From Nanobdellota archaeon (GTDB taxonomy: Archaea > Nanobdellota > Nanobdellia > Pacearchaeales > GW2011-AR1): a stretch of DNA of 58,423 nt. The stretch is from positions 1 through 58,423 of the forward strand of contig JAHIVP010000023.1 of NCBI GenBank assembly GCA_018816335.1, in the 5' to 3' direction. Of the stretch, positions 5,012-58,423 are shown piece after piece (the first letter of the stretch is position 1; the number at the start of each line of letters is the position of its first letter). The notes under the pieces are model-generated. The model did not search any database, was not told the DNA's origin, and saw nothing but the letters and a program-made list of their open reading frames with translations. A program made the position numbers and the translations under genes.

Positions 5012-5154
5012 ACTTTATCATTGTGGTTTTTTCTTTATTTATTAATATTTGTTTTGGTGTCATTTTGATAATTAGTGTATAAGTTTTGAAATTTTTGTAC
5101 CATACAAATAACCCCCCCACCCACCCTTATTTATGGTGCAAAAATTTAAATTAT

Positions 5155-5427
5155 TTATTCTAAACCTCCATAATCTAATTTTTCTCCAGGATCATACTCA
5201 TAGTGATCTAATGAACTAGATTTTTTTAACCATCCTTCTTCAACTAATAATCCTAAACAATATTCTAATAGGGTTACATCTTCTGAGGATAATTTTAGTT
5301 GTTCACTTAAAGTTATAAGGGTGCTATCAAATGCTTTTCCTTCTTTGAATAATTTTATTATTCTTTTCTTTAGTTCTTCTATTTCAATTTTTCGAGCATC
5401 ATAACTGTTTTTTATTTCTCCTTCCAT
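5155..5427 (-). CDS. Hypothetical protein, possible winged helix
   Basis: ORF packed in the gyrB run; LGLLVEEGWL resembles a wHTH wing. Confidence 0.6.
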   Translation of the reverse strand: MEGEIKNSYDARKIEIEELKKRIIKLFKEGKAFDSTLITLSEQLKLSSEDVTLLEYCLGLLVEEGWLKKSSSLDHYEYDPGEKLDYGGLE

Positions 5428-7956: not shown

Positions 7957-8231
7957 TTTTGATTTTTTTTGCTTTTGCTTCAATATATAATTCCCTCCCA
8001 CCCTCCTATTTATGGAAGCAAAATTAATCTTTGTATTTTCAAATCAAATTAGATAATTTCCACTAAATGGCTTTAGTTTTTGCTAAAGTCAAGGTAGAAG
8101 ATTACAACCTGTTGATATGTAAAAAACAACTTTGTTTATAAAGTTTTCCCCTTGTTTTTTTTGATTTGTCGACGGTAAATGAGAAAAATAGGGGATATGT
8201 ATAGTACAGTATATATGTTGTAGTATATAGA

Positions 8232-9911: not shown

Positions 9912-10238
9912 ATGGTAACCGAAGCTTTATTAAAGAAAAGTAGAGAATTTTCTAGAGACTCTCATGGAACAACTAGTCAATTGCTAGTTTTTGTTAAAAC
10001 AATGCAGGAATTAAAGGATTTAGAAAATTTAGCAGATACATTTGAGGATGGGAATCCAAGTATAAGGAGTGAGTTAATACAAAAACACTTTTTTGTAGCT
10101 ATTGATATTGAACAGGCGTCTGGGTGGGTAGAATCTGAAGACTGGGGGATGCCTAAACATTATGCAATTTTATATGGTTATGCTGCTGAAAGATTAGCTG
10201 AGTTTGAAAGAAAATATAATTCTCTATTACAAATTTAA
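9912..10238 (+). CDS. Hypothetical protein
   Basis: Standalone ORF with TATA-like TTTATAAA upstream. Confidence 0.6.
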   Translation: MVTEALLKKSREFSRDSHGTTSQLLVFVKTMQELKDLENLADTFEDGNPSIRSELIQKHFFVAIDIEQASGWVESEDWGMPKHYAILYGYAAERLAEFERKYNSLLQI

Positions 10239-10251
10239 TTTCTTTAGTTAG

Positions 10252-11457
10252 TTACTTCCAACTAACTACCACGTCATCAGTTCGTTCTCTTGGTTTGATG
10301 TCAATCTTGTTTATGTCTTTTTCAAAGCTGCTGGAGTGGAACATAATCTCTCCGGTATAAGCAATCATTGCAGCATTGTCGACTAATAAAGATTTTTCAG
10401 GACAAAAGAAGGCCGCCCCCCTTTCTTTACACATTATCTTACACATTTCTTGTAACCTTGTATTGCAACAAACTCCTCCGCCTAATGCTAGCTCGTTTTT
10501 TCCTGTGTGTGCTAGAGCACGTTCTGCTGCTTCTACCATCATTGCGAAAACTGTTTCTTGTAAAGAGTATGCTAAGTTTTCGACAGTATATTGTTGCTCC
10601 AAATCAGGCTTGCGCCATGATTTTTCGTTAGGAATTTTATTAATCTGAAAAACTTTTGAAGATGTTGATGAGTTAACTTTATTTAATTTAGATTTATCAG
10701 GTAATTTATCATAGAGTTGTTTGAGTTTTGTTAGTAATCCTGAAACTGAGACATCCATTCCTTTTATTGAATAAGGGAGTTCTATTAGGTCTGGAATTTG
10801 TTTTTTAGATGGGTCCCACCCACCCACCCTATCAGTTTGGTTATTAATAGAAGAAGATCTGTTATCAGATTGATTTTTATTAATAGGATTGTTTTTGTTG
10901 TTGGTTATAAATTTCTCAGCTAGTTCAGCAATCTTAGGGCCTCCTGGGAATCCTAAGCCTATGTAACGAGCAAATGTGTCAATCATGTTTCCTACACCCA
11001 TGTCTAGTGTTTCTCCGAAGATTCTGTATTTTTCTGCAGCATAAGAAATTATTTGTGTATTTGCTCCACTTACATAGAGAAGAACTGGGTCTTTTGCTCC
11101 AACAATTTTTGTAATTTCTAAATGAGCTATGCAGTGATTGACAGGAATTATTGGGATTGATAATTTTTCTGCTAATTGTTTTGCGAATTTCATTCCTTCT
11201 AATAATGAAGGAGCTAAACCAGGTGCGTTTGATAGAGCTATAGCTTTTATTTCAGATTCTTTTATATTTGCTTTTTCTAAAGCTTGTTTGTAGATTTTAT
11301 CTTTAACTTTTTCGTGATGTTCTGCTACTTCTGTTGGTATCATTCCACCTTGTCCTGATTTTGTTGTGAAGCTGTCACTGATGTTGCTTAGTATTTCTCC
11401 TTCTTTGACAACAGCCACACCAAAGGTGTGTGCTGTTGATTCAATTCCTAGTATCAT
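10252..11457 (-). CDS. kae1: tRNA t6A threonylcarbamoyltransferase Kae1 with two ~36-aa repeat-derived insertions
   Basis: LGIESTAH, HCIAH, LYVSGANTQ, GETLD, GFPGGP, DNAAMIA; extra segments after ELAEKF and after LKQLY. Confidence 0.95.
   Translation of the reverse strand: MILGIESTAHTFGVAVVKEGEILSNISDSFTTKSGQGGMIPTEVAEHHEKVKDKIYKQALEKANIKESEIKAIALSNAPGLAPSLLEGMKFAKQLAEKLSIPIIPVNHCIAHLEITKIVGAKDPVLLYVSGANTQIISYAAEKYRIFGETLDMGVGNMIDTFARYIGLGFPGGPKIAELAEKFITNNKNNPINKNQSDNRSSSINNQTDRVGGWDPSKKQIPDLIELPYSIKGMDVSVSGLLTKLKQLYDKLPDKSKLNKVNSSTSSKVFQINKIPNEKSWRKPDLEQQYTVENLAYSLQETVFAMMVEAAERALAHTGKNELALGGGVCCNTRLQEMCKIMCKERGAAFFCPEKSLLVDNAAMIAYTGEIMFHSSSFEKDINKIDIKPRERTDDVVVSWK
10595..10705 (-). repeat. 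Family A repeat (bulged-T subtype) translated in frame within kae1
   Basis: AAATCAGGCTTGCGCCATGATTTTTCGTTAGGAATTTTATTAAT is nearly identical to the intergenic copy at 47176. Confidence 0.85.
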
Positions 11458-11575
11458 AAAATAAATATAGAATTAGTATATATAAAACTTAATAAAAAAT
11501 CTTTGATTTTTTAAAACTTAAAATCTAAAGATTGAAACTTAATAAAAATATTAAAAGAAAATAAAAAATAAAAAT

Positions 11576-12194: not shown

Positions 12195-12290
12195 TGATTC
12201 CACCTCCCTTGGCAATTTGATTGTAATTATATTTTTGTATCTACAATCAAATTGTTTTTATTAATTCCCTATGATTTTTATGATGAGTCT
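12195..12290. repeat. Hairpin repeat family C (also about 25037-25110, 43530-43620, 48487-48570)
   Basis: C-rich-CCTTG, 9-14-bp stem, then (T)TT(T)ATTA(A)T(T)C; stems co-vary between copies. Confidence 0.7.
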
Positions 12291-15327: not shown

Positions 15328-15360
15328 AATCTTTGTAATTTTCGAAACTCTTGAAACTTT

Positions 15361-15527
15361 GTTAAACTTTAAATTCATAAAGTTTAAATTGAAAGACACC
15401 AAGGTTTCTTTCTATCTTCCTTAAATTTTGTTAAACTTTAAATTCATAAAGTTTAAATTGAAAGACACCAAGGTTTCTTTCTATCTTCCTTAAATTTTGT
15501 TAAACTTTAAATTCATAAAGTTTAAAT
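15361..15527 (+). CRISPR. Orphan CRISPR-like mini-array, or a 69-bp tandem repeat
   Basis: 35-bp palindromic GTTAAACTTTAAATTCATAAAGTTTAAATTGAAAG twice plus a truncated third copy, separated by two identical 34-bp spacers; no cas genes in the window. Confidence 0.4.
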
Positions 15528-15549
15528 AAGCTCTAAATTCTACAAAAAT

Positions 15550-17225: not shown

Positions 17226-17312
17226 TCCACCACCCCAACTCGTTTGTTTCCATGGTCAACAAACTCGTTTTAGGATTTTGTTAATAAATAAGAATTTTTA
17301 TGATAGGTTTGA
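17226..17312 (-). repeat. Family A repeat, GA/GA subtype
   Basis: CCACCACCCC, GTTTGTT-TCCATGGTC-AACAAAC, TTAGGATTTTGTTAAT...GATAGG. Confidence 0.75.
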
Positions 17313-17979: not shown

Positions 17980-18237
17980 TTTATTATTAATTCAGAAAGG
18001 TTTTTAAATTTAAGTTTGTGAGAGTTTTTTAAGAATTTTATTAATGTAAAGAGAATTTTAATGATAGGTGAGCAGTTTAGGTAGAAAGATTTATATATGA
18101 GATTTTTGATATAAAGTTATGACAGCGAAAACTTTAGGGAGTTATCCCCATTGTTGAAATAGAAGATAATTTTTTTAGCTGTTGCTTTCTTGGAAATGAT
18201 AAGGTTTTTAATGTTCTCTTAACTAAAGAGATATATA

Positions 18238-20010: not shown

Positions 20011-21163
20011 AATGAAAACAGAAACTGTTAAAGGATTTAGAGATATAGAAAATGCTTCGAAAAGGTTTGAGATAAGGAAGATTATTGAGGAAACTTTCAA
20101 GCTTTATGGTTTTGAGGGTGTTGAGACTCCTGTTGTAGAATATGAAGAGTTTGTTAAAGGAGAGAATTCTGGAGATGATGCTGTGTCTGATATTTTTAAA
20201 TTAGAAGATAAGGGAAAGAGAAAGTTGGCTTTGAGATATGAATTTACTTTTCAGTTGAAGAGACTTGCTAAGAATAAGAAGTTGCCTTGGAAAAGATATC
20301 AGATTGGTGAGGTTTTTAGAGATGAGCCTGTTAAGGCAAATCGATGGAGGCAGTTTACTCAGTGTGATATTGATACAATTGGATCTAGTGTTAGAGATGA
20401 AGCTGAGATTTTGAAGATTGTTTCTGAGTTAATGGATAAGTTAGGAATTAAAGTTGAAATTAATGTTAATAATAGAAAGTTGTTAAATGAGATTATAGAT
20501 GAATTAAAAATTAAAAAGAAAGAACAAGTAATGAGAGAGATAGATAAGCTTGATAAATTAGATGAAAAAGAAGTTAAGGCTAATTTGAAAAAGTATGAAG
20601 CTGAGAAAATTATTGATATATTAAAGAAACCTAAATCTTATTTTAAGAAATATGAATCTTATAATGAAATTGAGGAGTTGGAGAAGTATTGTAAGTTTTA
20701 TAATATTAAAATTAATTTTGTGGCTTTTTTAGTTAGGGGTTTGAGTTATTATAATGGAAGTGTTTTTGAGATAAAGGTTCCAAAGGTTGATGGGAGTGTG
20801 GCGGGAGGAGGAAGTTATTTGGTTAATGGAGTTCAGTCAACTGGAATTGCTTTTGGTTTAGATAGAATTGAGCAACTTGCTAATGTAGAAGTTGATAATA
20901 AAAAAGTTTTAATTATTTCAATTGGAAAAGATAAAGAAACTGTTGAATTAGCTGATAAATTAAGAGGAGAGGGAGTTGCTTGTGTTGTTAGTTTTGATAA
21001 AGTTGGGAAGGCTTTAGAGTATGCTAATTCTTATTCTATTCCTTATGTTGTTTTTGTTGGGGAAGAAGAAGTTAAGAAAAAGAAGTTTAAGTTGAAGGAT
21101 ATGGGAAGTGGAGAGGAGAGTTTTGTAAGTGAAAGAGATATTGGGAAGAAGCTTCGAATTTGA
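20000..21163 (+). CDS. hisS: Histidine--tRNA ligase
   Basis: VKGFRD, LRYEFT, FRDEP..RWRQFTQCD, LVRGLSYYNG, GGG, anticodon-binding domain. Confidence 0.93.
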   Translation: MESKMKTETVKGFRDIENASKRFEIRKIIEETFKLYGFEGVETPVVEYEEFVKGENSGDDAVSDIFKLEDKGKRKLALRYEFTFQLKRLAKNKKLPWKRYQIGEVFRDEPVKANRWRQFTQCDIDTIGSSVRDEAEILKIVSELMDKLGIKVEINVNNRKLLNEIIDELKIKKKEQVMREIDKLDKLDEKEVKANLKKYEAEKIIDILKKPKSYFKKYESYNEIEELEKYCKFYNIKINFVAFLVRGLSYYNGSVFEIKVPKVDGSVAGGGSYLVNGVQSTGIAFGLDRIEQLANVEVDNKKVLIISIGKDKETVELADKLRGEGVACVVSFDKVGKALEYANSYSIPYVVFVGEEEVKKKKFKLKDMGSGEESFVSERDIGKKLRI

Positions 21164-21228
21164 CTTTGTCAAAATTCTTCGCTAAGAAATTATTAATTGA
21201 GAAAAATTTAAAGATAGGTTGTGAGTAT
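21156..21228 (-). repeat. Family A repeat, bulged-T subtype, overlapping the hisS stop
   Basis: GAATTT-GAC-TTT-GTC-A-AAATTC, then TTCGCTAAGAAATTATTAATTG...GATAGGTTGTGAGT. Confidence 0.8.
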
Positions 21229-25016: not shown

Positions 25017-25120
25017 TTTTATTATTATATATCTTTCCTCCACCCTTGAAAATTCGCTTGTTTTTATATTATAGTTTGTAACTCGCGAATTTTGTTATTA
25101 TCTCCCACAACAATTAGATA

Positions 25121-34188: not shown

Positions 34189-34263
34189 GGAGCTGACTGT
34201 GTCAAGTTCCTTTGCTAAGAAATTTATTAATAGAAGGGAATCTTAAAGATAGGTTGTGAGTTT
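34189..34263 (-). repeat. Family A repeat, bulged-T subtype
   Basis: GGAGCT-GAC-TGT-GTC-A-AGTTCC, then TTGCTAAGAAATTTATTAAT...GATAGGTTGTGAGT. Confidence 0.8.
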
Positions 34264-34394
34264 AATTGTATTAATTTATAGATTTAGATGGTTATCTTTA
34301 TTATTTTTCCCAAATTGAATCAAAATAATCTTTATTTGGTACCACTTAATAGTAACATTTATAAATACTTTTAATTTAAATAAATCATATAAAA

Positions 34395-35223: not shown

Positions 35224-35337
35224 TTTAATCCTATAATAAAACCCAAACTCCCAACCACGCTCGCCTTGAGTTGAGGAATTCACCCCCCACCTCTCGCGTA
35301 ATTGCTCGCCCACCCTCCCTTTTGATAGGATTAAAAT
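35222..35337. repeat. 13-bp perfect IR enclosing a C-rich element at the nth start
   Basis: ATTTTAATCCTAT/ATAGGATTAAAAT; contains AACCACGCTCGC also seen at 578-589. Confidence 0.55.
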
Positions 35338-35371
35338 TAATAGGATGAGGGATTTAAAGATTTATTGATTA

Positions 35372-41067: not shown

Positions 41068-41290
41068 AGCAATCAGCTCGGGGCTCGCTGATTGCTTTTT
41101 TGGAGATTTATTAATTGGTAAATTTTAATGATAAGTGATGGTTGAAATATATTAATATAGAATTTATTAATAAGAAAATTTTATGATAATTTTTATGGAA
41201 AATATAATGGCTACAAACTGGACTTTGTCACAGTTTTTCGCTTAAAGAGTTTATTATCTGGAAAAATTTTAAAGATAGAAGATTAGTTGG
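41068..41290 (-). repeat. Two family A repeats (41068 GA/GA subtype; 41215 bulged-T subtype) plus a tail-only copy
   Basis: AGCAATCAGC-TCGGGGCTC-GCTGATTGCT; AAACTG-GAC-TTT-GTC-A-CAGTTT; each followed by a TTATTA...GATA tail. Confidence 0.8.
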
Positions 41291-42591: not shown

Positions 42592-42935
42592 AGAGATTGC
42601 CTCCATGGTCGGCAATCTCTTTTTGAGGAATTTATTAATTGGAAAAATTTTAAAGATAGGTTGTGAGTTTATATAAAAAAGAGATGGGTTGAATATAGAA
42701 ATGTAGTTTCCCCTCCACCCCTTTGACTCAATAACCTCGTAGCTCGGTTATCTTGTTTTAGGAATTTATTAACCCTAAAAATCTTCAGGATTTTTGGGCC
42801 ACAAAATCCAAGACTACACTTCTAAAAAATTCTAAGGAATTTTTGGAACCTTCAACTCTGAAGAGATTGAAGTCTTTGTGCAGAATTAGTTGAGGATTTT
42901 GTTGGTGTGAAGAAATTTTAATGATAGGTGATTAG
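42592..42935 (-). repeat. Two family A repeats (42592, 42730); the second is interrupted by a hairpin and a family B element
   Basis: AGAGATTGCC-TCCATGGTC-GGCAATCTCT; ATAACC-TCGTAGCTC-GGTTAT; tail split after TTATTAA and resumed at about 42906. Confidence 0.75.
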
Positions 42936-43520: not shown

Positions 43521-43688
43521 TTTTGTTTATGATTCTTCCCCTCCTTGACAATTTGATTGAAGTTATATTAAAATTTGTTCAATCAAATTGTTTTTATTAT
43601 CTCCTATATTTTGAAAGATGATGGTTAGATTAGGGGTTAAGGTTATTTGTTTATATTTGATTTTCATTTTTGTTTATATGTTTTTACA

Positions 43689-45435: not shown

Positions 45436-45527
45436 CCACCACCCCAAGAAATCAGCTCGGGGCTTACTGATTTCTTTTTAGGAATTTATTAGTTGAAGAG
45501 AATTTATGATAAGTTGGAGGTTGAGTA
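45436..45527 (-). repeat. Family A repeat
   Basis: CCACCACCCC, AAGAAATCAG..CTGATTTCTT, TTAGGAATTTATTAGTTG...GATAAG. Confidence 0.78.
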
Positions 45528-45784: not shown

Positions 45785-47113
45785 ATGGAGGTGAATATCT
45801 TATTTGACTTTTTGTTAGCATTAGGTATAGGAGCGATTATTGGGTTGGAGAGGGAGATTCAGCAGCAACATGAGAAAGAGAAGGATTTTGCTGGGATTAG
45901 GACATTTATTTTGATTTCTATTTTGGGTTTTTTGTCTGCGTTTATTTCAATTAGGTTATTTGATTCTATTATTACTTTTATTATTGCATTTGCTGTTTTT
46001 GCTCTTTTTATTTCAACTGCTTATGTTATATTGGCTTTGAAAAAGGGAAAGTTTGGGACTACAACTGAGATTGCTGCTTTTATTGCATTTTTATTATCTG
46101 CTGCTGTTGCTTTTGATATTACTAATAATATGAAGTTGGTTGCTGTTGGAGTTGCTGTGATTGTTGCTTCACTTTTGGTTTTGAAAAGAAAGTTACATAA
46201 GTTTGCTGGTGGGATTAAGATTGTTGAGGTTTATGCTGCGATTAAAATGGCTGTGATTAGTATTATTATTTTACCTCTTCTTCCAAATTATAATTATACT
46301 TTGCTTGAGATTCCTATTGTTGATAAGATTGTTGGTTTGTTTCCGAAGATTATTCCTATTGTTGAGCAGCTTGATGTTTTTAATCCATTTAAGATTTGGT
46401 TGATGGTTGTGTTTATTACTGGTTTGAGTTTTATTGGATATATTTTGATTAAAAGTATTGGAATGAATAAGGGAATTAAGTTGACAAGTATTTTAGGTGC
46501 TTTGGTTTCTTCAACAGCTGTGACTGTTTCTTTGTCTGATAAGAGTAAGGGGAAGAAAGTTTATACTCCGTTTGTAATTGGAATTGTGTTGGCTTCTTCG
46601 ATTATGTTTGTTAGAGTTTTAATTGAGATTATTGTTGTTAATCCTTCTTTGTTTCATTTAGCTTTGATTCCGATTGGAGGGATGGCTATAACTGGTTTGT
46701 TAGTTAGTTTTTTATTTAGCAAGTTTATGAAACAGGAAAAAGATGAGAGAATTGATTTGAAGAGTCCGTTTGCAATTGGGCCTGGGATTAAGTTTGGTTT
46801 GTTTTTTGCTTTTATTTTAGTTATCTCTAAATTGTTGTTTATTTTATTTGGGAACTCTGGAATTTTTATTGCTGCTCTGGTTTCTGGGTTGGCTGATGTT
46901 GATGCTATTACTTTGACATTAGCTAGTTTGGCTGCTGGAGGAACAGTGTCTGCTGTTGTTGCTGTTTTAGGGATTACAATTGCTGTTGCTTCTAATACTG
47001 TTGTTAAGGCTGGGATTGCAATGGTAATGGCTGATAAAAGAGTTGGGAAGTGGGTTGCTATTATATTTGCATTAATATTGGCGGTGGGGTTGGGGGTTTT
47101 GTTGTTTTTGTAA
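45785..47113 (+). CDS. MgtC/SapB + DUF4010 membrane protein
   Basis: GAIIGLERE..AGIRTF, GTTTE, LVSSTA, GLADVDA. Confidence 0.92.
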   Translation: MEVNILFDFLLALGIGAIIGLEREIQQQHEKEKDFAGIRTFILISILGFLSAFISIRLFDSIITFIIAFAVFALFISTAYVILALKKGKFGTTTEIAAFIAFLLSAAVAFDITNNMKLVAVGVAVIVASLLVLKRKLHKFAGGIKIVEVYAAIKMAVISIIILPLLPNYNYTLLEIPIVDKIVGLFPKIIPIVEQLDVFNPFKIWLMVVFITGLSFIGYILIKSIGMNKGIKLTSILGALVSSTAVTVSLSDKSKGKKVYTPFVIGIVLASSIMFVRVLIEIIVVNPSLFHLALIPIGGMAITGLLVSFLFSKFMKQEKDERIDLKSPFAIGPGIKFGLFFAFILVISKLLFILFGNSGIFIAALVSGLADVDAITLTLASLAAGGTVSAVVAVLGITIAVASNTVVKAGIAMVMADKRVGKWVAIIFALILAVGLGVLLFL

Positions 47114-47174
47114 GTTTCTTATTTGTCGTGGTGGTGGGGTTGGGGGTTTTGTTGTTTTTGTAAGAGAAGAACTT

Positions 47175-47250
47175 AAAATCAGGCTTCGCCATGATTTTTC
47201 GTTTAAGAAATTTATTAATTAAAGAAAATTTCATGATAGGGTTGATTGAT
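47175..47250 (-). repeat. Family A repeat, bulged-T subtype (closest match to the kae1 insert)
   Basis: AAAATCA-GGC-TTC-GCC-A-TGATTTT, TTCGTTTAAGAAATTTATTAATT...GATAGG. Confidence 0.82.
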
Positions 47251-47297
47251 TTTGTTCAATTAGATAATAATAAATATTTAGTTGATTAAGATAATTT

Positions 47298-47987
47298 ATG
47301 AATACTTATGTTCGTGGGTTGTGTTTTATTATAATTGTAATATTAATAGTTGTTGTTCCTGGTTTGTTTTATTCTGATGAGATTGAGGGAGATATTGTTG
47401 TTAGGGTTTTAGATGGAGATACTGTTGAAGTTAGTGGAGAAGATCATATTAGATTATTAGGAATTAATGCTCCTGAGAGAGGGATGAAGTTGTATCAGGA
47501 AGCTAAGGATTATTTATTGTTTTTGGAGGGGAAGGAAGTTGAGATGGAGTTTTTTGAAGAAGAGTATGATAAGTATGGAAGGAAGTTGAGGTATGTTTTT
47601 TATAATAATAGAAATATTAATCGTGAGTTGGTTTTGAATGGGCTTGCTAATGTTTTGATTTATCAAGAAGATGATTATAGTGATGAGTTGATTGAAGCTG
47701 AAGATTATGCAAGGGATAATGAGTTAGGAATATGGAAGAAGAGTTTTAGTAAGTGTTCAGATTGTGTTAAGATAGTTTTTGCTAATAAAGATATTGAGTT
47801 TAGAAATAATTGTGGGTTTGGTTGTGATTTATCTGGTTGGAGGGTTAAAGATAGACAGAGACATTATTTTGAATTTGGAGATAGGGTTTTAGAAAAGGGA
47901 GATAATTATGTTTTAGATTGGGATTATGATTCTGAGAATATTTTTGTTTGGGATGGGGTGGGGTTGGTTTATTTTTCAGATAAATAA
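47298..47987 (+). CDS. Thermonuclease (SNase) family protein with lamin-tail-like C-terminus
   Basis: VLDGDT, IRLLGINAPE, DKYGR, GIW. Confidence 0.92.
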   Translation: MNTYVRGLCFIIIVILIVVVPGLFYSDEIEGDIVVRVLDGDTVEVSGEDHIRLLGINAPERGMKLYQEAKDYLLFLEGKEVEMEFFEEEYDKYGRKLRYVFYNNRNINRELVLNGLANVLIYQEDDYSDELIEAEDYARDNELGIWKKSFSKCSDCVKIVFANKDIEFRNNCGFGCDLSGWRVKDRQRHYFEFGDRVLEKGDNYVLDWDYDSENIFVWDGVGLVYFSDK

Positions 47988-48328: not shown

Positions 48329-48412
48329 TCCACCTTATAAAATCACCTCGGGGCTTGGTGATTTTATTTGAAGAGATTTGTTAGTTGAAGAAAATTCAAG
48401 ATAGGTTGTAGT
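48329..48412 (-). repeat. Family A repeat
   Basis: ATAAAATCACC-TCGGGGCTT-GGTGATTTTAT...GATAGGTTGT. Confidence 0.75.
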
Positions 48413-48613
48413 TATGGATAGGATAGATTAAAGGGAAAATTATGTTGATAGGTTTGAGATTATTTATAATAAATTTTATTAATGTTTCCGCCACCCTTGA
48501 CAATTTTCCCATTATATATAGTAAATTGAATTGGAAAATTGTTTTTATTAATTCCCAAGATATTATTGAGCTGATAGTTTTAGAAAGGTTAGTAAAATAT
48601 AGTAATACTGAAG

Positions 48614-54324: not shown

Positions 54325-57300
54325 ATGAAACTACATAAAAAGAGGATAGCTGTAGCTTTGATGTTATTGGTTGTATCTGTTATATTGTTAAGTTTGGCTG
54401 TTTCTGAGTTTAGTTCTGATAGTGTTGTTTTAAATGATTGGTTAATGTTTGGACGAACATTGAATGGAACAAGTTATACTTCTGCGACTGCTCCGATTAA
54501 TATTTCAAATGGAAATGTTGTGACTTATACAACTTTAGGTGATGTAAATTGGAATCCTTTGATTTATGGTGATTTTTTATATGTTTCTGATAATATTGCT
54601 AATGGGAGTGTTTATCAATTGAATTCTTCAAATGTTTCTCATTATTTAGATAATTATACTGTGGGTAATGAACAAGAAATAAGTGTTCAAGGAGCTGTTG
54701 CAAATAATTCTTTATATTTTAGTTCTTCAAGTACTGAAAAGGGGGTATATCTTTATCAAGTAAACTCTTCAAATGTTAGTCAAATATTTTATAATAGAAG
54801 TATTGGTGGGGCTGTTGATGCAACTTCAGGATATATTATTGTTTGGAATGATAAAACATATCTTTCTGTTTCAGATATAACAGGAGGTTATTCAACTATA
54901 TATCAGTATAATGCTACAAACATAACACATCAATATGATAGTATGAATTTAGGGGGTGATGGAGCTGCTGTTCCTATTGGTTTTTCAAATCCAATTATAT
55001 CAAATGGATTTTTATATATTGGAAATGGATCTTATGTTAGTCAGTTAAACGCTACTAATGTATCTCATTATTTTGATGTTTATTTAACTGGAGGGAATGT
55101 TCTTGAATTATCTTATTCAGATTCAATGATTTATGCTGCAGCTGCTAATGGTATTTTATATCAATTAAATGCTACAAATGTTTCTCACTACTTTGATAAT
55201 TATACAACTGGAGCTAGGATTGATTCTAAGCCATCAATTAGAGGAGATGTTGTGTTTTTTGGAAGTGATGATAATGCTGTTTATCAGTTGAATGCTTCTA
55301 ATGTTTCACATTATTTTGATAATTATACAACTGGGGGAGATGTTGATAGTAGTCCTGCTGTTACTGATAATTATGTTTTTGTTGGTAGTGATGATAATTC
55401 TATGTATCAACTTAACTCTACAAATATTTCTTTTTTAATTGGAAGTTATGCGACTGGTGGGGATGTTGATAGTTCTGCTACTGTTTCAAATGGTTATGTG
55501 TTTTTTGGAAGTGATGATGATAAGGTTTATCAGATTAGTGGTGGTTCTACTAGAGTTCCGCTAAGTTCTGATTCTCAAAATGAAGGAGACTGGTTGATGT
55601 TTGGGAGAACTTTAAATGGAACAAGTTATACAAATGCTAGTGGTCCTGTTAATATTTCAAATGGGGTTGTTGTGAATTTCTCTGCTGGGGGAGATGTAGA
55701 TTCTTCTTTAGCTGTTTCAAGTGGTTTTGTATATGTTGGTAGTGATGATTATCAGTTTTACCAGTTGAATGCTTCTAATGTTTCTCAATTAATTCTGAAT
55801 TTTTCTACTGAGGGGACTGTTGATTCTTCTCCTGCTGTTGCAAATGAATATGTTTATATGTGGGCTACAGAACTGTCTAATTATTATATCTATCAATTAA
55901 ACTCAACTAATGTTAGTCATAAAATTACTAATGTTAGCCGTATTGGATCTTTTAGCCTTGCAGATATTTTAGTTTGGGAGAATTCTTTATATTCTTCTGA
56001 ATATGAAGACACCCCAATTCATAGAATAAGACAATTAAATGCTTCAAATATTAGTCAGGTGATTGCTTCAATTAATTTTGATGACTTTGGAGCAAGTGGA
56101 AGTGTAAGTATATCTTCTCCTTCAATTTGGAATAATTTCATTTATGTTATTAACACAACTATTCTTTTACAATTAAATGCTTCAAATATTAGTCAAGAAA
56201 ACATAGCATCATTTGATTTTGGTTCAGGGAATCAAGTATTTTCTTCATCTGTAGTATCAAATGGTTATATCTATATTGGAAATACTGATAATAAATTGTA
56301 TCAACTTAATGCTTCAAATATTAGTCAATTGATTTCAACTTATACAACAGGAGGGAATGTAGATAGTAGTGCTGCGATTAAAGGAGATGTTTTATATATT
56401 GGGTCAGATGACAATGCAATTTATCAATTGAATGCTTCTAATGTTTCTCACTACTTTGATAATTATACAACTGGTGGAGATGTAGATTCAAGTCCTGCTG
56501 TGACTGATAATTATGTTTTTGTTGGTAGTGATGACAATAATATGTATCAATTAAATGTAACAAATATTTCTTTTTTGATTGGGAGTTATACAACTGGTGG
56601 AGATGTAGATTCAAGTCCTGTTGTTGTTGGGGGTTATGTTTATTTTGGGAGTGATGATGATCAGGTTTATCAAATTGGGGGTGGGACTGCAGAGGGAGAT
56701 ACAACTTCTCCGATGGCAAATCATTCATTACCTGGAAATTTTACTAATGTTAGTTCAAGGACTGTTGAGTTTTTTATTAATTCTTCTGATGATATTAATT
56801 TGAAGAATATTACATTGTTTATCTGGAATTCTTCAGGAAGTTTGATACATAGAAATTCAACTAATATAACTGGTACTTGGAATATAACTAATTGGAATTA
56901 TACATTTGCTTATGATGATTTATATAACTGGACTGGGTTGGTTTATGATAATTCTGATAATTATAATATTACTGATGAGAGGGATGGTTTAGGTGTTTGG
57001 AATTGGACAATTAATGTTACTTTTGTTGACACAACTCCACCTGTAATCAACTTATCAACACCTGCTAATCCTACTTCGACAACTACGACTTCAACTAATT
57101 TTATATTTAATGTGACTGATGATTCTAATGTTGTTAATTGTAGTTTGTTGATTGATCATGCTATTGTTGCTTATAATGCGTCTGCTATAACTAAGTCTGA
57201 GTTAAATACTATCACTAGAACAATGGCTGTTGGAAGTTATACTTGGAATATTAATTGTACTGATGCTTCTAATAATATTGGGAATTCAACTAATTATTCT

Positions 57301-58290
57301 TTGACTATTGCTTCATCTAGTTCGTCTTCTAGTTCAGGTGGAGGGAGTTCTGGAGGAGGAAGTAGTACATCTTCAACTAGTTCAACATCTTCAGGGGGTG
57401 GGGATGATGAGGAAGAGGAGGAGGGATGTGATTATGAAGCTGATTGTGAGTTGTGGAGTTTATGTCAAGATGGTGAGCAGAGTAGGAGTTGTATTATAAC
57501 TAATACAGATTGTTCTAGTAGTTCAAGTCTTGAGAATAGGAATTGTATTGAGTGTTCTGAATCTTGGGTTTGTGATGATTGGACAGAATGTATTTTAGGA
57601 GGTAAGAGTAGAAATTGTTTTGATGAGAATTCTTGTTTGATTTTAAATGATAAGCCTGATGAGTTTGAAGATTGTGATACTAATTTAAGTCCTCAAGATG
57701 ATGTTAGTGGTGTGGATGGTGTTAAAGATGAGAGAGAGAGTTGGGAATGTGATGATTGGAGTGATTGTGATGCTAGTTATGATTTTGAAGATATTTTATT
57801 AGAGGTTAGTTCTGTTAGTGGGGAGATTAGAAGAAGTTGTAATAAAGGAAGTGAGCAAATTGTTCAGAGAGATAGTTGTAGTTTGAAAGTTGGGATTGAG
57901 ATGATTAAGAAAGAAAGATGTGGTAAAGAATTTTTAGAGTTTTATGATGTTGATTGGGGTTTGTTAGGAAGGTTTTCTAAGGAGGGTGTGAAGATGGATA
58001 TTGAGTTTACTGATGATGTTGGTTATTGTGCTTATTGTTATGATGGGATTATAAATTATGATGAAGTTGAAATTGATTGTGGAGGTAGTTGTCCTGAATG
58101 TGTTGATTATGTTGATAAGTTTAATTGGTGGATTTATGTGAAGTGGGGGTTGTGGATTTTGTGGTTGTTATTATTGTTGGTTTTGTTGTATTTGATTTAT
58201 AGTGAGTATAGGGAGAGATATATAAGTTATTATAGAAGTTTTCATAAGTATGTTAAGGAGTATAGGGTTAGGAAGTTTATTGGGAGTTGA
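54325..58290 (+). CDS. Large surface glycoprotein: two PQQ/BamB-like beta-propellers, Ig-like domains, Ser/Gly linker, Cys-rich repeats, C-terminal TM
   Basis: DWLMFGR twice; 40-aa repeats TGGDVDSSPAV..VFVGSDD..YQLN; many NxS/T sequons; WxCxxWxxC; DCGGSCPEC. Confidence 0.88.
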   Translation: MKLHKKRIAVALMLLVVSVILLSLAVSEFSSDSVVLNDWLMFGRTLNGTSYTSATAPINISNGNVVTYTTLGDVNWNPLIYGDFLYVSDNIANGSVYQLNSSNVSHYLDNYTVGNEQEISVQGAVANNSLYFSSSSTEKGVYLYQVNSSNVSQIFYNRSIGGAVDATSGYIIVWNDKTYLSVSDITGGYSTIYQYNATNITHQYDSMNLGGDGAAVPIGFSNPIISNGFLYIGNGSYVSQLNATNVSHYFDVYLTGGNVLELSYSDSMIYAAAANGILYQLNATNVSHYFDNYTTGARIDSKPSIRGDVVFFGSDDNAVYQLNASNVSHYFDNYTTGGDVDSSPAVTDNYVFVGSDDNSMYQLNSTNISFLIGSYATGGDVDSSATVSNGYVFFGSDDDKVYQISGGSTRVPLSSDSQNEGDWLMFGRTLNGTSYTNASGPVNISNGVVVNFSAGGDVDSSLAVSSGFVYVGSDDYQFYQLNASNVSQLILNFSTEGTVDSSPAVANEYVYMWATELSNYYIYQLNSTNVSHKITNVSRIGSFSLADILVWENSLYSSEYEDTPIHRIRQLNASNISQVIASINFDDFGASGSVSISSPSIWNNFIYVINTTILLQLNASNISQENIASFDFGSGNQVFSSSVVSNGYIYIGNTDNKLYQLNASNISQLISTYTTGGNVDSSAAIKGDVLYIGSDDNAIYQLNASNVSHYFDNYTTGGDVDSSPAVTDNYVFVGSDDNNMYQLNVTNISFLIGSYTTGGDVDSSPVVVGGYVYFGSDDDQVYQIGGGTAEGDTTSPMANHSLPGNFTNVSSRTVEFFINSSDDINLKNITLFIWNSSGSLIHRNSTNITGTWNITNWNYTFAYDDLYNWTGLVYDNSDNYNITDERDGLGVWNWTINVTFVDTTPPVINLSTPANPTSTTTTSTNFIFNVTDDSNVVNCSLLIDHAIVAYNASAITKSELNTITRTMAVGSYTWNINCTDASNNIGNSTNYSLTIASSSSSSSSGGGSSGGGSSTSSTSSTSSGGGDDEEEEEGCDYEADCELWSLCQDGEQSRSCIITNTDCSSSSSLENRNCIECSESWVCDDWTECILGGKSRNCFDENSCLILNDKPDEFEDCDTNLSPQDDVSGVDGVKDERESWECDDWSDCDASYDFEDILLEVSSVSGEIRRSCNKGSEQIVQRDSCSLKVGIEMIKKERCGKEFLEFYDVDWGLLGRFSKEGVKMDIEFTDDVGYCAYCYDGIINYDEVEIDCGGSCPECVDYVDKFNWWIYVKWGLWILWLLLLLVLLYLIYSEYRERYISYYRSFHKYVKEYRVRKFIGS

Positions 58291-58423
58291 ACTTTATTGA
58301 AAGATGAACTTTATTGAAAGATGAACTTTATTGAAAGATGAACTTTATTGAAAGATGAACTTTATTGAAAGATGAACTTTATTGAAAGATGAACTTTATT
58401 GAAAGATGAACTTTATTGAAAGA
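58288..58423. repeat. Perfect 17-bp tandem repeat (TGAACTTTATTGAAAGA)x8 running off the window end
   Basis: Directly visible; the first TGA is the stop of the surface-protein gene. Confidence 0.97.

Follow-up and report, generated by a model that had tools for sequence, protein, structure and literature searches.

The question raised by this locus is where two extra segments in an otherwise regular Kae1 protein come from. The window, i.e. the whole stretch of DNA analysed here, comprises 58,423 nucleotides (nt) of contig JAHIVP010000023.1 from the 0.9-Mb genome of a Nanobdellota archaeon, a metagenome bin of 45 contigs with about 31% G+C and 82% completeness. The open reading frame (ORF) 10252-11457 on its minus strand encodes Kae1, the N6-threonylcarbamoyladenine synthase of KEOPS, as an intact protein of 401 amino acids. 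A first-pass annotation of this DNA had proposed that one dispersed repeat is translated in frame twice inside this gene. Our analysis supports this proposal for one of the two segments, insert B, which is an in-frame copy of a structured repeat family (family 1). It does not do so for the other, insert A, in which no second copy could be demonstrated and which shows affinities to a further hairpin family (family 2). Our preferred explanation, to which we assign a probability of about 0.72, is that Kae1 is a working gene which absorbed dispersed hairpin-repeat DNA of its own genome at two loops, in a manner resembling that of the Rickettsia palindromic elements (RPEs).

The archaeal Kae1 equivalog model TIGR03722 matched the protein in three stretches with 376.6 bits, compared to a cut-off of 375, and Kae1 of P. 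abyssi (2IVN, 330-residue chain) aligned to it with an E value of 2.2e-91. In the latter alignment amino acids 2-182, 224-248, and 289-400 correspond to residues 3-181, 185-209, and 214-324 of the chain. Since amino acids 183-223 and 249-288 have no counterpart in 2IVN, they represent extra segments, located as follows:

10789-10911, minus strand: insert A as coded, amino acids 183-223; delimited by the 2IVN alignment, a 36-sequence alignment, and the DNA of a relative.
10594-10713 (about 10597-10713), minus strand: insert B as coded, amino acids 249-288; delimited by the 2IVN alignment, the 36-sequence alignment, and the DNA pair with L096, the contig of the closest homologue.

Both inserts have a length that is a multiple of three and are free of stop codons; the peptide of the insert region reads SSKVFQINK...PDLEQQYTVENLAYSLQ. 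The stretches NHCIAHLE (HxxxH) and DNAAM are both present, and we take the His pair of the former and the Asp of the latter to be metal-binding positions of Kae1. Across an alignment of 60 Kae1 sequences the columns of H108 and D360 are invariant, with a conservation of at least 90% for H112. Together with the 2IVN alignment and the TIGR03722 match, these columns bear out the earlier description of a 401-residue Kae1 with two extra segments, an intact frame, and intact catalytic motifs. No other Kae1 match was found in the genome, and the nearest database proteins are labelled Nanoarchaeota or Candidatus Pacearchaeota archaeon. An AlphaFold2 model derived from the 60 sequences has a confident core, with a mean predicted local distance difference test score (pLDDT) of 82.2 and a predicted template modelling score of 0.79. 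Coil with a pLDDT below 50 was predicted for amino acids 193-214 and 218-220 in insert A, 261-285 in insert B, and 389-401 at the C-terminus. Both inserts sit between blocks aligned to the solved Kae1 and, in this predicted model, look like disordered surface loops in the second domain of the protein.

A dispersed repeat is visible by BLAST and repeat finding in the window as well as in the rest of the genome. Profiles of this family 1 were built leaving the Kae1 copy out and were iterated to a model of 81 positions, which at a threshold of E<1e-3 detected 46 copies genome-wide. A single-sequence nhmmer seed, which yielded only 4 matches, was replaced by this alignment-based profile. In a full copy the hairpin leads via a T-rich linker into a conserved AT-rich module, whose consensus is roughly AAGAAATTTATTAATTGAAAAAAATTTAAAGATAGGTTGTGAG and in which the TATA-like core TTTTATTAAT forms invariant columns. 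Two classes of hairpins are comprised in the family. The type-2 hairpin has 9 pairs and a conserved bulged A; 98.6% of the alignment cells are paired (16 sequences), and 8 of the 9 pairs changed on both sides. The type-1 hairpin, often preceded by CCACCACCCCAA, consists of 7 pairs together with a TC/TC internal loop and a single closing pair; 93.8% of the cells are paired (14 sequences), and 7 out of 8 pairs are compensatory. For either class the observed covariation score was reached by none of 500 shuffles, a count which is not a probability since the aligned copies are related. In slid controls of the hairpin alignments the paired fraction dropped to 16-47%. Hence, family 1 is a real, structured repeat family. 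With a single exception its 46 copies are located outside of ORFs of at least 70 amino acids, though such ORFs span 84% of the genome in our crude ORF map. Another two copies extend into the end of an ORF, one by 1 nt and the other by 12 nt. The contexts of the 45 other copies are tandem genes (22), convergent genes (9), divergent genes (7), and contig ends (7).

The sole copy inside such an ORF is that in Kae1. Its features are:

10597-10696, plus strand, antisense to Kae1: family-1 copy, identified by profiles built without the Kae1 copy and by BLAST.
10601-10623, plus strand: type-2 hairpin of insert B, a 9-bp stem of 10601-10609 with 10614-10616 and 10618-10623, loop 10610-10613, bulged A 10617; from the covariation alignment.
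10635-10644, plus strand: TATA-like core TTTTATTAAT, the invariant family columns within the AT-rich 3' module.
10692-10699 and 10704-10711, plus strand: 8-nt direct repeat ATTTATCA at the junction of the 3'-end of the element with Kae1 sequence.

The 81-position profile matched insert B at 10597-10674 on the plus strand with an E value of 4.9e-8, covering model positions 1-77 of 81, and an earlier profile, also built without the Kae1 copy, matched 10596-10696 (nhmmer, E 3.2e-7). The limits of the profile match coincide with the limits of insert B drawn independently from the protein alignments. In the covariation alignment the row of the Kae1 copy pairs at all 9 positions, and the hairpin is followed by the TTTATTAAT module, as the family requires. 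Insert B is a true, nearly full family-1 copy. Its DNA had been described as almost identical to the intergenic copy at 47176 (47176-47265), which is the nearest copy in the window. This applies to the hairpin core, with 28 of 29 nt identical (E 4.5e-6), whereas the full comparison gives 77.7% identity over 94 nt (BLAST, E 1.3e-10). The parallel drawn to RPEs, namely a new peptide segment arising from an in-frame palindromic repeat, holds for insert B if it is translated. The ATTTATCA direct repeat may be microhomology at the junction; a flanking target-site duplication it is not.

Comparison with the closest homologue, P0002 (355 amino acids), provided information on the relative age of both inserts. 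It is encoded on L096, a metagenome contig of 1662 bp, the DNA of which is 84.1% identical to our gene over 1068 aligned columns. Site B is empty in L096, the missing DNA comprising about 111 nt around 10597-10708. From insert A, L096 keeps the first approximately 75 nt at about 97% identity, and 24 nt including GGGTGGGTGGGTGGG are missing. Since most of insert A is common to both, it predates the split from L096. Insert B and the G-tract are either specific to the side of the genome studied here (G000) or were precisely lost on the other side. Logan contigs of four groundwater runs were used to check the assembly of 10200-11500. The probable source run spans 10200-10969 with zero differences, and a 599-nt contig of run X2, from another sample and study, covers 10444-11042 with 5 differences and no gaps. 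Further contigs span 10626-10817 (X4) and 10856-11152 (X3). No joint skipping either insert was found in the contigs of the four runs. The insertion is specific to its lineage and was not produced by the assembly; reads showing misassembly had been named by the first-pass annotation itself as a threat to its proposal.

None of 35 Kae1 genes drawn from other genera within the same family and order contains insert A, and five of these genes (G024, G020, G010, G012, and G005) contain site-B inserts of unrelated length. A type-2 covariance model, trained with the Kae1 copy included, was applied to 41 genomes and gave matches in eight, all of the same family: G000 (30), G005 (23), G010 (14), G014 (4), G019 (3), G024 (2), G012 (1), and G020 (1). 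At site B, 6 of the 36 Kae1 genes compared have an insert in the loop, and all six genomes concerned are among the eight repeat-bearing ones; as these genomes are kin and not independent, the association of repeat and insert is given in counts only. Among the genes compared there was no site-B insert in a genome lacking the repeat. The finding named by the first-pass annotation as a refutation, inserts conserved across distant DPANN irrespective of the element, was therefore not made, and its proposal was not refuted in this way. In the Kae1 insert of G010 two copies overlap, one on each strand, and the one in sense is the stronger (E 1.6e-4 and 6e-3). The inserts of G005, G012, G020, and G024 contained no copy recognisable by the repeat model.

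In general, site B, a loop between two helices, is a hot spot in Pacearchaeota-like Kae1 proteins, where insertions of 17-99 residues occur, and many of the site-B inserts of Kae1 homologues end in S-x-SE-x-x-NYTLE. At site A, 6 of the 120 best homologues, query included, have at least 26 residues. The Kae1 gene of G019 (L024, G019:C42) was considered as a case broken by an element at site B and was rejected, as its reading frame shifts within an A-run without any insert. This frame change exactly at site B is either genuine or the result of a sequencing error.

Family 2 is formed by a long AT-rich hairpin around the 15-nt loop CCCWCCCWCCCWCCC, which represents a G-quadruplex motif on the other strand. 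At least 14 pairs flank the loop in 23 of 34 copies, and the profile detected 61 copies at E<1e-3 and 66 at E<=1e-2. Four-tract motifs, mostly family-2 loops, were observed 36 times in the genome compared to about 3e-4 expected from base composition, and non-homopolymer four-tract matches number 0-4 in each of 40 relatives. Ten family-2 copies are located wholly inside ORFs (E<=1e-2). The tenth is in an ORF of 140 amino acids, and the other nine are found in eight genes confirmed by Pfam or NCBIfam, where all of them are read through in frame. These genes are, by contig and position:

C29:14257-16842: family-B DNA polymerase (PolB).
C7:10430-12145: PheRS beta.
C2:18581-20332: ATP-dependent DNA ligase.
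C29:8056-9255: NOL1/NOP2/Sun RNA methylase.
C7:1392-2528: Dus.
C19:9752-10516: Hef/XPF nuclease.
C2:588-1325: TYW3.
C36:5009-5839: Bud32 (two copies).

Bud32, in which the read-through peptide is exemplified by ...NTIKREGGRVL..., matches its own model in three stretches. In PolB the element resides within an insertion of approximately 90 residues in comparison to Pfu polymerase (query 9-128 and 223-844 versus 3-130 and 135-751). Because family-2 copies are read in frame in Bud32, both this protein and Kae1, which are KEOPS partners, carry inserts. With insert B of Kae1 and the nine family-2 copies there are dispersed palindromic copies that are in frame and stop-free inside conserved genes. 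In-frame hairpin inserts are a genome-wide phenomenon.

Insert A shares sequence blocks with both families:

10815-10829, plus strand: tract CCCACCCACCCACCC (mRNA GGGTGGGTGGGTGGG, coding for RVGGW), in the 24-nt stretch missing from the closest relative.
10841-10858, plus strand: TTATTAATAGAAGAAGAT, core of the family-1 3' module; 14/16 identical to the module of the Bud32 composite and in the same order.
10878-10894, plus strand: TATTAATAGGATTGTTT block, matching the 3' stem of the family-2 copy C2:8429 (15/16) and a block of the Bud32 insert (15/17).

The CCCACCCACCCACCC tract has the form of a family-2 hairpin loop and is one of the 36 four-tract motifs of the genome; insert A thus carries the family-2 CCCNCCCNCCCNCCC loop. 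The intergenic family-2 copy C2:8415-8460 is 78.7% identical to insert A over 47 nt (E 5e-4 genome-wide), and the block TATTAATAGGATT of insert A has three occurrences in the genome, one of them directly after the C-tract of that copy. In comparison to the second Bud32 insert, three blocks are collinear, namely the C-tract, the family-1 module core (14/16), and TATyAATAGGATT (15/17). This suggests that insert A is probably a worn composite element made up of a G-quadruplex-type tract, a family-1 AT module, and a family-2 stem block. Two links made by the first-pass annotation had to be given up. The match of the tail of insert A to the copy at 34224 is an exact 13-mer (10841-10853 = 34224-34236) with an E value of 0.27-0.76 in the AT-rich window, which is at chance level. 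The C-rich head, regarded as part of the same repeat, was rejected as a family-1 marker, as only 10 out of 373 C-rich sites genome-wide adjoin family-1 copies and its form is that of the family-2 loop.

In our preferred explanation a family-1 copy would have been inserted antisense into Kae1 after the split from the closest known relative, and insert A would be an older composite element, now worn, like the composite that is in frame in Bud32. Most likely, both inserts are transcribed and translated with the rest of Kae1 as floppy surface loops and are tolerated; this translation, the neutrality of the inserts, and the element origin of insert A we infer from sequence. As with RPEs, selfish or neutral DNA would survive in an essential gene only where a permissive loop takes it up in frame. 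That the family-1 element is mobile is suggested indirectly by the empty site, by its almost complete absence from genes, and by copy numbers that are patchy and specific to lineages. The AT-rich module may be, or may have been, a promoter, and the copy in Kae1 could fire antisense. In the genome, TATA-like words (TTTAAATA, TTTATATA, and TTTATTAA) peak 30-21 nt before the start codons of 594 ORFs of at least 150 amino acids, as expected if most mRNAs are leaderless. The module of the intergenic family-1 copies was not found at promoter distance from downstream starts.

A number of observations weigh against this explanation. The mobility claimed by the first-pass annotation gains from the empty site and the patchy distribution and suffers from the lack of the usual hallmarks of transposition: no terminal inverted repeats were seen in the family-1 alignments, and no flanking target-site duplication was found at insert B, where there is only the 8-nt repeat at one junction and where the divergence of 16% from the empty site blurs the boundaries in this comparison. 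Neither Y1 (PF01797) nor TnpB (PF07282) gave a match in the 82%-complete genome, and the one DDE_Tnp_1 (PF01609) and one rve (PF00665) gene above cut-off do not adjoin the repeats. A pairwise likeness of 75-90% among family-1 copies gives no sign of a recent burst, and in intergenic copies both the hairpin and the TATA-like module are strongly conserved, which could point to a cellular function and not to selfish spread. Insert A matched the family-1 profile with at best 1.9 bits over 18 nt (E 0.2 in 2.6 kb) and the family-2 profile by its C-tract alone (6.5 bits), and the family-2 stem is not kept, with 9 pairs compared to at least 14 in most copies of the family. Thus, an element origin of insert A is plausible but short of proof.

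The relatives add further points of this kind. Recognisable copies were restricted to the inserts of G000 and G010 when 73 Kae1 loci were scanned with the repeat model. The site-B window, normally 13-14 residues, exceeds 14 residues in 30 of the 120 best homologues including the query. In P0005 and P0026, which are about 60% identical to our protein, the site-B inserts end in ...NKPDLIEQ and ...GKTDLIEH, resembling ...RKPDLEQQ of G000. This could mean that the same hairpin type is read in one and the same frame, or that these genes share an older insert which was then lost in the nearest relative. In a quick Kae1 tree the insert-bearing genes are ungrouped; since this tree is poorly resolved (15 of 33 inner branches open), it does not decide between one and several insertions.

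The alternatives differ mainly in what becomes of the inserted DNA. It is quite improbable that the inserts are cut out ahead of translation, by way of a bulge-helix-bulge intron or another hairpin-guided cut, leaving a mature Kae1 of normal length, as the first-pass annotation had considered. Archaea splice some mRNAs with the tRNA endonuclease, and the elements are hairpins. But minimum-energy and centroid folds of 10570-10740 (minus strand) contained no bulge-helix-bulge, only the small hairpin of the element; the fold around insert B has a z-score of -0.28, 71 of 200 shuffles fold as well, and the ends of the insert are unpaired. In addition, both inserts are in frame and stop-free, while among the 234 combinations of frame and copy in family 1 (39 long copies) only 40, about 1 in 6, are stop-free, and the ten in-ORF copies of family 2, nine of them in the eight verified genes, keep the frame as well. 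This argues against excision because excised elements need not keep frame. Moreover, none of nine family-2 copies tightly flanked by ORFs on the same strand splits a gene, the flanking ORFs being distinct complete genes, e.g. MCM, CDC48, ProRS, FEN1, and aIF1A; this test covered nine of 12 tightly flanked copies, i.e. all nine of family 2 and none of the three of family 1. Only slightly better placed, and still unlikely, is the idea that the inserts were put to use, through an antisense transcript from the TATA-like module, through tuning of Kae1 translation by hairpin or G-quadruplex, or as loops acting in KEOPS. The genomic peak of TATA-like words of the same kind, the identity of about 97% to the relative in the common part of insert A as compared to 84% gene-wide, and the presence of inserts in both Kae1 and Bud32 speak for such a role. 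On the other side, the intergenic copies are off promoter distance and 9 of the 46 copies face convergent genes, the inserts are predicted to be disordered, and the nearest relative does well without insert B.

Other alternatives concern the nature of the inserts themselves. One holds that loops in an AT-rich genome expanded by ordinary low-complexity sequence, which gave rise to insert A or to both inserts, and that the likeness to repeats is compositional, the repeat having had no share in it. This draws on the variability of site B (29 of 119 other homologues with inserts of 17-99 residues), on the failure of insert A with both hidden Markov models, and on the chance-level 13-mer shared with 34224. 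We nevertheless consider it highly improbable in view of the independent profile match of insert B with its complete hairpin, bulged A, and coinciding boundaries, the excess of the 15-nt CCCNCCCNCCCNCCC tract, which was seen 36 times, mostly in family-2 loops, the match of insert A to C2:8415-8460, and its three blocks collinear with the Bud32 insert. Even less credit is due to assembly artefacts or to a decaying Kae1 pseudogene. Repeats can mislead assemblers, and the genome is an incomplete bin in many contigs, but contigs of X2 and X4 span insert junctions, all 401 codons are open, the conserved columns are intact, the score is above the equivalog cut-off, and no other Kae1 match exists. 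A bolder view, which goes beyond our preferred explanation and which we regard as doubtful yet worth stating, is that the hairpin elements are a new type of archaeal mobile DNA, spreading by hairpin-guided copying without a known transposase and settling repeatedly, in different genera, in the same permissive loops that essential genes offer. Site B of Kae1 would then have been hit independently in G000, in antisense, and in G010, by two copies with the stronger in sense, and the elements would build protein loops and plant TATA-type antisense promoters and G-quadruplex motifs in Kae1 and Bud32.

Besides those described above, the window contains further copies of both families and some additional repeats:

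47172-47253, plus strand: closest intergenic family-1 copy (E 2e-12), between ORFs 45785-47113 and 47298-47987.
34190-34266, plus strand: intergenic family-1 copy (E 5.6e-13) containing the 13-mer shared with insert A.
42599-42672, plus strand: intergenic family-1 copy with type-1 hairpin, from the profile search.
458-516, 17247-17312, 18027-18078, 21152-21228, 41070-41144, 41211-41290, 42727-42791, 45451-45524, and 48342-48413: more family-1 copies.
5075-5159, 7973-8037, and 35307-35342: family-2 copies.

Just upstream of the family-1 copy at 47172, a 50-nt tandem duplication at 47079-47164 with the G-rich unit TGGyGGTGGGGTTGGGGGTTTTGTTGTTTTTGTAAG covers the stop of ORF 45785-47113. Elsewhere in the genome the family-1 AT-rich module was found in tandem arrays without hairpin at contig ends (C34:29500-30110, C34:32100-32240, and C14:1-170). 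Other repeats in the window are a 62-nt hairpin repeat (CCTTGrCAATTTGATTG ... CAATCAAATTG ... TTATTAnnTCC) with three copies at 12207-12268, 25044-25105, and 43543-43604, a 69-nt tandem repeat in three copies at 15340-15546, 123-nt periodic repeats (41-residue units) in coding sequence at 54436-56691 with several diverged copies, and a 17-nt tandem repeat (GAACTTTATTGAAAGAT) of about 8 copies at the window end (58238-58407).

The known system most similar to our findings are the RPEs, for which 44 in-frame insertions have been reported in R. conorii according to excerpts of a review (PMC10969869). As far as these excerpts go, both systems consist of dispersed palindromic repeats of about 100-150 bp in a host-dependent microbe whose genome is small and AT-rich, many of the copies are in frame in unrelated housekeeping genes, the peptide segments are thought to be compatible with the fold, and no transposase is known. 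In contrast to RPEs, the elements described here reside in an archaeon and their sequences appear unrelated. Nearly all of family 1 is intergenic, a single copy out of 46 being inside a gene, and a TATA-like module is part of it; the loop of family 2 is of the G-quadruplex type, and no conserved peptide family encoded by the elements was defined.

[quoted passage not shown] In contrast, no terminal inverted repeats, flanking target duplication, parent insertion sequence, or Y1 (RAYT-type) transposase was found here. The coding palindromes of Nematomorpha mitochondria are also inverted repeats inside protein genes that are read as protein, but occur in organelle genomes, are much longer and perfect, and lack a dispersed intergenic family with a promoter-like module (PMC6649704). 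Extra segments in conserved proteins are also known as lineage-specific insertions in universal proteins of DPANN, which served as clade markers, with no link to dispersed DNA repeats made in the abstract excerpt of that study (bioRxiv 10.64898/2026.06.17.729505). An in-frame archaeal case was found neither in the excerpts of PMC10969869 nor in the literature searched, with subscription journals outside its coverage. Hence, within this literature, in-frame palindromic colonisation of essential genes is known for Rickettsia and has not yet been described for archaea.

The same outcome with apparently unrelated elements in a DPANN archaeon suggests that such colonisation is a general consequence of small, AT-rich genomes of host-dependent organisms. 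Elements of this kind would supply universal proteins with new loops. Their inserts would also swell the lineage-specific insertions that serve as phylogenetic markers, break up domain matches in annotation, and mimic misassembly. For Kae1 itself, the empty site in the nearest relative offers a before-and-after pair by which the tolerance of this protein and of KEOPS to a 37-residue insertion may be studied.

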